DNA from: a virus
Lineage: Duplodnaviria > Heunggongvirae > Uroviricota > Caudoviricetes
Virus record (IMG/VR): IMGVR_UViG_2850808358_000011
DNA length: 12,053 bases
Direction: 5' to 3' (one strand)
Shown: positions 7,439 to 8,627 of the stretch, in pieces
How the letters are laid out: every line of letters starts with the position of its first letter
Numbering within the stretch: the stretch's first letter is position 1
Made by a program: the position numbers and the translations under genes
The notes under the pieces: generated by a model
Seen by the model: only the letters and a program-made list of their open reading frames with translations
Told to the model about the DNA's origin: nothing
The model's database searches: none

Positions 7439-7620
7439 TACCGGATTTTGAGGTAAAGGCAAAAAAACACTGGTAAGACCAGAAACAAAAATACAACACA
7501 AATAAATTGAATGAGCTCATTGTTATACCTTCACATAGAAGCGAATAAAAAACGTAATACGTGTTACGTTACAGCCACCAAAAAAACGCAAAAAAACTGC
7601 CTTTAACCCCCCCTTCCTGT

Positions 7621-7648
7621 TTGCACAGAAGTGCACAAATTTGCACAA
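7621..7648. promoter_or_regulatory. Three direct repeats of TGCACA(A) at exact 10-bp phasing; a fourth copy GTGCACAA at 7713-7720
   Basis: TTTGCACAgaaGTGCACAAAtTTGCACAA read directly; helical-turn spacing suggests a cooperative protein-binding site. Confidence 0.45.
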
Positions 7649-7940
7649 TTTTTTAGAGTAACTTTTTGCCCATACGGCCCAGTACTGGCGCGCCCGGAGG
7701 GCGATTTCGTGCGTGCACAAAAAACGGAGAGTTTTTCACGCGCAGGTGACGGGGGAACAGCACGCGTTTCAGGGGGTAAATTACATTTTCGCTAAAGACT
7801 GCGGGAATGCCCGACCGGGTTAGTTTTATCGCCAGCCAGAGCCGTTCTTACGGCAAGAGAGAACTGATACGGGGAATGTGACGAGTGAGCATGGGAACGG
7901 TGCGCCCGTGCGTAATACGCGGCGACTGCTGCGGGTTTAT

Positions 7941-7973
7941 TTGATACAGCCAGAGGGCGGCAGAAGATATAAT
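7941..7973 (+). promoter_or_regulatory. Candidate promoter for the Ogr/Delta-like gene (TATAAT at 7968-7973; poor -35)
   Basis: Consensus -10 hexamer 35 nt upstream of ATG 8008; TTGATA at 7941-7946 is 21 bp away (non-optimal), so probably activator-dependent or a different -35. Confidence 0.25.
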
Positions 7974-8007
7974 AGTTCAAATTTCACACCAGTAAGAGGA
8001 GCGTGAT

Positions 8008-8190
8008 ATGTCTTTCCCTTGCCCGGCCTGTGGCGCTTCATCCCGCACCCGTGGTCGTTCGTTGGAAGAACACGAACAAAACATCTACAGAACGTATTAC
8101 CAGTGCAATAATATTGAGTGTGGGGCTTGTTTTTGTACGCTTGAGTCGTTTGTACGCATTACTAAGCGCAGGAAGTCGAAAACTTCATAG
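8008..8190 (+). CDS. Ogr/Delta-family zinc-finger late-gene transcriptional activator
   Basis: 60 aa; CPACG...(N20)...YYQCNNIECGACF-T-ES matches the remembered P2 Ogr pattern (CPLCQ...YHQCQNVNCSATFITYES); strong RBS AAGAGGAG upstream. Confidence 0.75.
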   Translation: MSFPCPACGASSRTRGRSLEEHEQNIYRTYYQCNNIECGACFCTLESFVRITKRRKSKTS

Positions 8191-8240
8191 TGATTTGTAT
8201 AACACAGCCAGCGAGTGTGACCGGCTGCGTTATTGCTGTA

Positions 8241-8474
8241 TTACGTCGTGTGGTTCTGGTCATTTGCCCAGGCCCACACATCCCCCGCTACATTGCGCCC
8301 GTTGCGGTCTTCCTCCTGCGTTTCCCCGGCCTTAATTCCCTGACTGATAAACATTCTGACGCACTGGGAGTAGTTCATCTCTCTGTCCTCACATATCTGA
8401 TTTATTTTATGGTCGATTTCGTGCGGGATACGAATACAGCGTAATACGCATCGCATTTTCTTTTGTTTTTTCAT
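8241..8474 (-). CDS. Ribbon-helix-helix (Arc/CopG-like) DNA-binding protein, putative repressor
   Basis: Minus-strand ORF; start chosen at ATG 8474 (MKKQKKMRCVLRCIRIPHEIDHKINQICEDREMNYSQCVRMFISQG) with RBS GGGAGG 7 nt upstream; beta-strand then two helices is typical of RHH proteins. Confidence 0.6.
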   Translation of the reverse strand: MKKQKKMRCVLRCIRIPHEIDHKINQICEDREMNYSQCVRMFISQGIKAGETQEEDRNGRNVAGDVWAWANDQNHTT

Positions 8475-8528
8475 CGTGTTGCCTCCCTGATTGCTTATGC
8501 CGGGATTTAACACCCGCGATATAAGAAA

Positions 8529-8627
8529 GCGTAATACAACAGTATTGTGAGCGTATTACGAGAACAAAATCGGCTGGAATGTATTACGCAATATGGAAAA
8601 AATCGGCGTAAGTAAAAAATGTATTAC
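8529..8627. promoter_or_regulatory. Operator-like cluster of GTAATAC/GTATTAC motifs in the divergent intergenic region between the RHH gene and the capsid-module operon
   Basis: Copies at 8531-8537, 8553-8559, 8581-8587, 8621-8627; related copies at about 7554-7560, 7912-7918 and 8441-8447. Confidence 0.4.

Follow-up and report, generated by a model that had tools for sequence, protein, structure and literature searches.

We report a putative regulatory switch in the 12,053-nucleotide stretch of DNA filed as virus record IMGVR_UViG_2850808358_000011 (hereafter the window), which represents a P4-like satellite island of Escherichia coli type. A 9-base-pair (bp) palindrome recurs around two small regulatory genes and in front of a capsid operon. 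We consider it likely that its copies are operators for dimers of a 77-amino-acid protein of the ribbon-helix-helix (RHH) kind, which would close an Ogr-type late promoter of the satellite's scaffold-like and capsid genes. The motif is enriched, is under purifying selection, keeps its positions across clades of related elements, and covaries with the strand of the RHH protein that would contact DNA.

The genes concerned lie side by side. An Ogr/Delta-like zinc-finger gene (8008-8190, plus strand) is followed by the RHH-like gene (8241-8474, minus strand), whose product is the proposed operator-binding repressor. This gene is divergent from the capsid operon (8639-10619, plus strand), which comprises a scaffold-like gene (8639-9348) and the gene for a homologue of the P2-family major capsid protein (9348-10619).

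The palindrome and its conservation

An earlier note on this DNA had listed about seven copies of GTAATAC or its complement GTATTAC, at 7554, 7912, 8441, 8531, 8553, 8581 and 8621, and had proposed that they form an operator array. An exact core is present at each of these seven positions, and the count proved somewhat low: exact cores had been missed at 8094, within the Ogr-like gene, and at 8238, at the RHH stop codon, which brings the number to nine or ten. GTAWTAC cores number 11 in the window against 1.15 expected (standard deviation 1.10), a figure reached by none of 200 dinucleotide-preserving shuffles, and the frequency is therefore higher than base composition would produce, a point on which the note had made its proposal depend. 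Nine of the 11 cores fall in 7554-8627. In an unbiased k-mer count, GTAATAC is the top non-homopolymer 7-mer of 7440-8640, with nine copies there compared to two in the other 10.8 kilobases (kb). In sequence terms, the recurrent motif is a 9-bp palindrome, YGTAWTACR, with TGT-N3-ACA as the form shared by the wider family. For YGTAWTACR, 0.29 matches would be expected and eight perfect ones occur, a number attained in 0 of 200 shuffles; every one of the eight lies in 7553-8628, and the remaining ~11 kb of the window is free of them.

The copies are referred to by letter; they occur in both orientations, and no strand is assigned to them. Copy A (7553-7561; CGTAATACG), an exact YGTAWTACR, lies ~65 bp to the left of a cos-like packaging region, and copy B (7911-7919; CGTAATACG) lies upstream of the Ogr-like gene, its centre being 93 bp 5' of the Ogr-like ATG and 49 bp 5' of a TATAAT at 7968-7973. 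This perfect TATAAT is found 35 bp 5' of the same ATG and has no usable -35 element; a TTGATA occurs 21-23 bp from it, the spacer length differing among variants. One or two copies are likewise found between cos and ogr in the sister clades L065, L069 and L072. Copy C (8093-8101; CGTATTACC) is located within the Ogr-like coding sequence, over codons T-Y-Y, and matches at eight of nine positions (exact GTATTAC core, one flank mismatch). Copy E (8237-8245; TGTATTACG), which overlaps the RHH stop codon, and copy F (8440-8448; CGTAATACG), inside RHH codons 9-12 (C-V-L-R), both match YGTAWTACR, and a Salmonella element (L065) carries a copy at the same place as F. As the earlier note had observed, four copies occupy the 164-bp divergent region at 8475-8638. 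Operator G (8530-8538; CGTAATACA) lies 7 bp to the left of the Ogr-type box described below and is centred 60 bp 5' of the RHH ATG; operator H (8552-8560; CGTATTACG) is inside the N12 spacer of this box and is specific to the E. coli lineage; operator I (8580-8588; TGTATTACG) is at the predicted core-promoter position; and operator J (8620-8628; TGTATTACA) abuts the Shine-Dalgarno sequence AGGAG (8629-8633), with its centre 15 bp 5' of the ATG at 8639.

Conservation of these sites was assessed in 19 distinct E. coli-type sequences. Variation affects 1 of 72 operator positions, compared to 12.6% of other positions (binomial P ~7e-4), and 0 of 49 non-coding operator positions, compared to 13.8% of other non-coding positions (binomial P ~7e-4). 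The sole variable operator position is C8244T in copy E, seen in some E. coli variants. At copy B, an invariant 9-mer (7911-7919) is set between stretches that vary heavily, namely 7901-7910, where six of the ten bases change, and 7921-7935. Copy A falls within an invariant block, AAAAACGTAATAC, the flanks of which are unalignable between the two E. coli island types, and the distance between copies A and B is constant at 358-359 bp across both types. Judged by this pattern of substitution, the motif is under purifying selection.

Related elements carry the motif as well. A HMMER scan with the 77-amino-acid protein returned nine matches among 1.84 billion representatives, six of which look like true relatives; four distant homologues have 30-41% identity. 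At all four of these distant loci an Ogr-like gene converges with the RHH gene, which in turn is divergent from scaffold-like and capsid genes, and no member of the RHH family was found outside this satellite module. Further elements, from Klebsiella, Enterobacter, Izhakiella, Kluyvera, Apirhabdus and several metagenomes, came to light when genome and metagenome contigs were scanned with an alignment of the capsid. About six clades of distant relatives retain the module with TGT-N3-ACA palindromes at corresponding places, the centres of which differ by clade and read AWT, TAT or CWG. TGTAWTACA occurs six times in L065 against 0.06 expected, TGTTATACA three times in L068 against 0.07 expected, and TGTCWGACA three times in L072 against 0.04 expected. 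The helper-type phage P88, in contrast, has two cores against 1.7 expected and thus no enrichment, which suggests that the motif belongs to the satellite rather than to the helper. Given that related elements carry different, locally enriched motifs, the binder would be encoded by the element itself, with a specificity that has diverged between clades.

Other searches for relatives were less productive. Word-index protein searches with the RHH, the 236-amino-acid scaffold-like and the Ogr-like proteins returned only near-identical E. coli proteins, a first genome scan with an RHH alignment found no relative, and tblastn of an RHH protein against 50,697 phage records found nothing. IMG/VR yielded neither of the RHH homologues P0022 and P0026, and a scan of it with the capsid protein gave only the E. 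coli type, followed by full phages at no more than 38%. Two apparent relatives were discarded: L002, which seemed to be a homologue at 53%, is poorly assembled, its genes being in fragments, and P0024 (434 amino acids, six repeats) is an unrelated repetitive protein.

The predicted late promoter and the candidate reader of the motif

An exact TGT-N12-ACA is absent near the capsid operon in the window, and a scan of 8475-8638 for sigma-70 consensus promoters found none, which fits dependence on an activator; manual assignments of -10 and -35 elements were inconsistent between clades and were dropped. TGT-N12-ACA is the consensus of Ogr-dependent P2 late promoters (PMC3931495). By aligning the intergenic regions of sister elements, with one mismatch allowed, we recognised a conserved box that reads T[G/C]T-N12-A[C/G]A and then ACAA, ACTA, ACTC or ACTT; it is centred 81.5-113.5 bp 5' of the scaffold-like ATG across elements. 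In the window, the box lies at 8546-8563 on the plus strand (TGTGAGCGTATTACGAGA, then ACAAAAT) and corresponds to the Ogr/Delta late-promoter dyad with one mismatch (TGT-N12-AGA, that is, AGA for ACA). It is the only extended box of Ogr type in the window on either strand, and it is invariant in the E. coli variants. All nine sister elements first examined have such a box. The exact form TGT-N12-ACA is present in L065, L068, L069, L077/L078 and L096-L100, and TCT-N12-ACA in the L074-L076 clade and in P88, which carries TCT-N12-ACA-ACAAAAG 81.5 bp 5' of its gpO-like gene (14216) and another box 5' of a tail gene (33255). The earlier note had stated that the recurrent motif is not the TGT-N12-ACA dyad. 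This is true of the motif itself; the intergenic region nevertheless holds a box of Ogr type, with copy H in its spacer. The proposed switch would therefore be better described as an RHH repressor acting over an Ogr-dependent late promoter.

In P2 and P4, the dyad of late promoters is centred near -55 relative to the transcription start, and all operator positions given here assume that the box centre is at -55 in the satellites, too. Under this assumption, operators G, H, I and J of the window are predicted at -75.5, -53.5, -25.5 and +14.5, respectively. Corresponding predictions are -76.5, -26.5 and +17.5 for L065, -76.5 and -26.5 for L069, -25.5 for L072, -76.5 and +12.5 for L068, and -76.5 and +38.5 for the L074-L080 clade. 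Except for L072, every element examined hence has an equivalent of operator G (-76.5 or -75.5), and the position of operator I is occupied in L065, L069 and L072 (-26.5 or -25.5). A copy 15-24 bp 5' of the scaffold-like ATG is present in E. coli, L065, L068 and the L074-L080 clade, and is degenerate in L069 and L072. With the box at -55, the activator box, core promoter and transcript start would all be covered by sites, which is a repressor's layout.

Which protein reads the motif might be deduced from covariation. The putative reading strand of the 77-amino-acid protein is R8-C9-V10-L11-R12-C13-I14-R15-I16-P17, of which R12, R15 and P17 are invariant in the RHH family. Across 19 elements compared in silico, residue 13 (A versus T/S/C) tracks position 4 of the site equivalent to operator G, with at least two independent switches: TGTTATACA is found at the -76 site next to the RHH gene in ten of ten elements with an L-R-A strand (Ala13), and [CT]GTAATACA in nine of nine elements with an L-R-T/S/C strand (Thr/Ser/Cys13). 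The first switch distinguishes L076 (KSVLRAVRVP) from L077/L078 (KSILRTVRVP), where the operator differs as well and the Ogr-like proteins are 100% identical; here, the difference lies in a mosaic tract of ~145 bp in which CTGTWATACAGTTT stands out as a conserved island. The second distinguishes L096/L100 (KSTLRALRIP) from L097/L099 (KSILRSLRIP). Their intergenic DNA is nearly identical, and both operators, 114 bp apart, change at position 4 (T versus A; T versus G), which would be hard to explain by linkage alone. L072 has Arg in place of Leu11, along with G/C in the operator centre (TGTCWGACA). The covariation falls on alternate strand positions, as would be predicted for an RHH reading head, and given that the operator covaries with the RHH strand, we infer that the 77-amino-acid protein is the reader of the motif. 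The suggestion in the earlier note that the adjacent RHH protein binds the array and switches the capsid module is thus favoured by the purifying selection on the motif, the conserved site positions in relatives, the covariation with the strand and the lack of the motif in P88.

The RHH label itself is plausible, though short of proof. For the 77-amino-acid protein, all Pfam matches stay below the gathering score, and the only ones of the window protein are to families of RHH type, namely CopG_antitoxin, the TraM N-terminus and RelB, all within residues 14-58. Among nine family members, RHH_5 (E = 0.018, three members) and CopG_antitoxin (E = 0.074, three members) are the most recurrent matches, all sub-threshold, while TraM, RelB and RHH_9 appear less often, together with scattered unrelated weak single matches. 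Among RHH proteins in the PDB, DinJ gives the best sequence alignment (E = 0.86). In the AlphaFold2 monomer, helices at 18-31 and 35-52 follow an extended N-terminus, at a predicted local distance difference test (pLDDT) score of 68, which is a modest confidence and applies to both AlphaFold2 models. Arc is the top PDB match in Foldseek (E = 0.38), with VapB, NikA and CdbA also listed, and none of these matches is significant. The protein further has a C-terminal helix (62-72) with a conserved Trp.

In the mechanism we propose, RHH dimers would sit on G (beside the box), H (inside the box), I (over the core promoter) and J (at the transcript start, next to the ribosome-binding site). Occupancy of these four sites should block the Ogr-type activator as well as RNA polymerase, and the capsid operon would be silent in the integrated state. 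Binding by the RHH protein, the transcription start, and repression rather than activation are deduced here from sequence patterns. Operator G, 60 bp 5' of the RHH start, would probably provide autoregulation of the RHH gene, and the copies flanking cos, A and B, which lie 5' of the Ogr-like gene, would probably put this gene under the same control. Repression is the mode of action of nearly all RHH transcription factors that have been characterised (Arc, Mnt, CopG, MetJ, omega and NikR). A broader version of this proposal, which we regard as possible though doubtful, is that the RHH protein, together with its operators, provides a "late-gene immunity" peculiar to the satellite, which would come in exchangeable types of specificity (AWT, TAT or CWG being paired with residue 13 or 11 of the strand) and would compete directly with the Ogr-type activator (operator H in the box, in E. 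coli); the copies bracketing cos might then couple capsid expression to packaging.

Weighing the alternatives

Several observations weigh against an RHH repressor acting at these sites. The RHH fold assignment is below significance, as seen from the best Pfam and Foldseek E values and the pLDDT given above. The predicted start rests on the -55 rule, and a start elsewhere could put copy I near -42, an activator position. The covariation rests on two to three independent switches, and in the first of these the operator lies in the same ~145-bp tract as the RHH N-terminal codons, which means that linkage could explain it. Specificity is not strict either, as A-type RHH elements retain some TGTATTACA sites. 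In all clades, the orientation of the central base is fixed by position, with A on the operon strand at ~-76 and T downstream, even where the flanks are change-saturated. This feature is not explained by a perfectly symmetric dimer; paired inverted sites in a looped complex may account for it. Two copies may owe their presence to the proteins they encode: the function of copy C is doubtful, and it may exist only as coding for the conserved YYQC motif, and copy F may be explained in part by coding for the conserved V-L-R. Lastly, when compared to the intact homologues of the E. coli island copy L001 (see below), the window shows frameshifts in the primase (~3510), scaffold-like (~8818) and PemK/MazF toxin (~10806) genes. 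The element in the window may be decaying, and could then be inactive, or its sequence may carry indel errors.

Of the readings that differ from repression by the RHH protein, two concern the nature of the regulator. It seems unlikely to us that the RHH protein binds the motif but mainly activates or co-activates the capsid operon from sites at about -42, -70 and -92, with a start near 8626. The lack of a sigma-70-like promoter does call for some activator, TAAAAAA precedes copies A and J as a possible -10 element (copy I would then be near -42), and a few RHH proteins, such as AmrZ, can activate. However, an activator site is already provided by the Ogr-type box, which is homologous to P88 late promoters and lies at the spacing expected from the scaffold ATG. 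The copy abutting the ribosome-binding site is in no position for an activator, the TAAAAAA context is not conserved in other clades, and RHH regulators mostly repress. It would be very improbable, in our judgement, that the Ogr-like zinc-finger protein (8008-8190) is instead what binds the motif, TGT-N3-ACA being a version of TGT-N12-ACA with a short spacer. The outer half-sites TGT and ACA match the Ogr consensus, and an Ogr-like gene is part of the module in all elements; yet operators differ between L076 and L077/L078 despite their identical Ogr-like proteins, and L072, whose Ogr-like protein is closest to that of the window (57%), has the most different motif. Moreover, every element has a separate conventional Ogr box, conservation within an element extends to all nine bases of the motif, whereas the spacer of Ogr sites is not conserved, and the Salmonella element L065 has six perfect sites despite an in-frame stop in its Ogr-like gene.

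A role of the motif outside transcription has been considered for some copies, especially A and B, which flank cos and might serve packaging or architecture, either by marking the satellite cos for the helper terminase or by looping. We regard this as improbable. Copy A is found 62-70 bp 5' of a TGCACA triple in ten of ten elements examined with a P88-type cos, although the flanks are unrelated; P88 lacks a copy at the equivalent place; and the cos-adjacent copy of L072 stays CGTAATACA though the other L072 copies read TGTCWGACA. This L072 copy (oriented 617-625) reads AAAACGTAATACACG and is identical to one E. coli island type, which hints at a separate function or at acquisition together with cos by recombination. 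Elements with another type of cos (the L096 and L074 clades), on the other hand, often have no copy there, copy A may simply be the operator of a promoter that reads through cos into ogr, and we know of no packaging role for RHH proteins in P2/P4 systems. Hardly any credence is due to the view that a factor of the host or of a helper phage binds the motif, or that the repeat arose from base composition or by chance. Nothing specific speaks for this view beyond the resemblance that short AT-rich palindromes can bear to the sites of nucleoid proteins of the host. The shuffles and the lack of enrichment in P88 speak against it, as do the presence of a single core in 6.5 kb of flanking chromosome of L001 and the fact that the motif differs between related elements, changing with the element-encoded protein. 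A helper-encoded regulator in particular was rejected on the P88 count. Three further candidates were dismissed. Sites of recombination, whether of shufflon or of arm type, at which the second tyrosine recombinase (encoded at 5879-6880) might act do not fit, as the similarity ends at 9 bp, the spacing is irregular, and the arms are 15 bp rather than 6-8 bp apart. Substitutions in the variants do not preserve the pairing of a terminator-like hairpin at 7918-7933, and a role at the RNA level was rejected, as copies are found in either orientation and Rfam gave no match at these places.

The satellite island and its place among known systems

The island itself has a P4-like backbone, consisting of a toprim primase gene, C4 and isrK RNAs, an Ogr-like gene and a helper-type cos, with an integrase at the left end of intact copies. 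In E. coli strain ETEC4067, a 96.6%-identical copy (L001) lies between gcd and hpt, and a second version of the island (L005) is integrated at a tRNA-Arg gene. The module is present in 57 of 5,426 complete E. coli genomes. No sid or psu gene is annotated in intact copies, for which no dedicated sid or psu profiles were run, and their place is occupied by the RHH, scaffold-like and P2-family capsid genes. In the window, the primase gene spans ~3208-5876, with an uninterrupted open reading frame from 3579 to 5876 after the frameshift near 3510, and is directly followed by the gene for the second tyrosine recombinase (5879-6880). The recombinase is 58% identical to its counterpart in L001, compared to 96-98% for its neighbours, and looks like an exchangeable cassette. 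Two indel differences elsewhere in the window fall in base runs. The isrK (52 bits) and C4 antisense (75 bits) RNAs were detected by Rfam at 1791-1985, a sign of a P4-type region for RNA immunity that is distinct from the RHH system.

The Ogr-like gene encodes 60 amino acids, belongs to Pfam PF04606 (E = 1e-10; 41.8 bits compared to a cut-off of 26.3) and has, by translation, the Cys ligands C5, C8, C33 and C38 of this family. It adjoins the RHH gene in every sister element and is presumed to be the late activator. In the Salmonella enterica element L065 (oriented coordinates 7724-7966), the in-frame stop lies within the first Cys pair (FPCP*CG), and the operators and the RHH gene are intact; L069 has two tandem Ogr-like genes (7525-7975). 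The capsid homologue (Pfam PF05125, E = 7e-72) is only 35-39% identical to capsids of P2-family phages and has an N-terminal extension of ~100 amino acids. The scaffold-like protein is a coiled-coil protein without a family match, and its 236-amino-acid product is intact in L001. A mazEF-type toxin-antitoxin pair and then hpt are located downstream of the capsid gene, and no portal, protease or terminase genes were seen in the window.

The cos-like packaging region (7618-7787, plus strand) contains three TGCACA repeats at 7621-7650 and is bracketed by copies A and B. It is ~79% identical to the region beside the portal gene of P88-like (Xuanwuvirus) Peduoviridae, marking it as a cos mimic and pointing to a P88-like helper, and is homologous in sister satellites. 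The TGCACA triple is missing from the L096 and L074 clades, which presumably mimic another helper. Between the second recombinase gene and cos, GGTTACA/TGTAACC iterons form a dense array at 7127-7449. The array is a large inverted repeat, with 54-nucleotide arms at 7127-7180 and 7396-7449 that are 85% complementary, and is probably a replication origin recognised by the primase. Sister elements have iterons of their own, for example TGGGAACA in L069 and L080.

The proposed regulator resembles known RHH repressors, such as Arc and Mnt of P22, CopG, omega of pSM19035, MetJ and RelB/DinJ, in several respects. It is small, with an N-terminal strand followed by two helices according to the structure prediction, its gene is divergent from the genes it would control, and its candidate operators are short (~9 bp), dyad-symmetric and present in multiple copies. 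As in these repressors, specificity would be set by alternate strand residues, here at positions 9, 11, 13 and 15. Unlike them, the 77-amino-acid protein has no significant sequence or fold match to those families, and its sites, instead of making up a single tandem array, are spread over ~1 kb and three control regions. As for the promoter, the late promoters served by Ogr of P2 and Delta of P4, including P4 Psid, share with it the T[G/C]T-N12-A[C/G]A box with ACAA, a zinc-finger gene in the module and the lack of sigma-70 -35/-10 consensus elements. They differ in that repressor-type operators are overlaid here, one of them inside the box spacer, and the recurrent motif itself is not the box. 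We are not aware of any described repressor that acts directly on a late promoter of P2 or P4. The zinc-finger spacing also differs, being CX2CX24CX4C here compared to the CX2CX22CX4C quoted in PMC3931495.

Master repressors of satellites offer another parallel. Stl of the Staphylococcus aureus pathogenicity islands (SaPIs) and the CI/C4 RNA immunity of P4 are likewise negative regulators that are encoded by the satellite, are divergent from the genes they silence and are presumably relieved by an active helper. Stl, however, is a helix-turn-helix protein controlling replication and excision genes, whereas the target here would be a morphogenetic late operon, and with respect to P4, the island has a separate P4-type C4/isrK region in addition to the RHH system. 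SaPIbov5 with its Ccm protein and those phage-inducible chromosomal islands that form capsids (see PMC8569155; bioRxiv 10.1101/2022.09.08.507074) similarly combine a helper-capsid homologue and a scaffold-like protein with a satellite copy of the helper cos. Unlike these islands, the present elements have a P4-like backbone (primase, C4 RNA and Ogr-like gene). A limited search of the searchable literature found no description of the module. We appear to be dealing with an ordinary type of regulator in an unusual, apparently undescribed position, within a satellite lineage that makes its own capsid protein.

P2 and P4 are the textbook system of a helper phage and its satellite, and their late promoters are thought to be governed by the availability of Ogr or Delta. 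In the P4-like lineage presented here, sid and psu are replaced by the element's own capsid and scaffold-like genes, and we propose that a dedicated repressor has been added to the Ogr-dependent promoter. Such an arrangement would explain how a potentially toxic capsid homologue is kept silent despite Ogr-type activators from resident prophages, and it points to an undiscovered signal for de-repression. The natural variants of the RHH strand (Ala versus Thr/Ser/Cys at position 13; Leu versus Arg at position 11), which are paired with single-base operator changes, for example TGTAATACA versus TGTTATACA, would offer a compact system to study RHH-DNA recognition and coevolution. If "late-gene immunity" of this kind is borne out, its repressor would have no known precedent at a late promoter of the P2/P4 type, and it would define a previously undescribed P4-like lineage that carries its own capsid protein instead of Sid and Psu.

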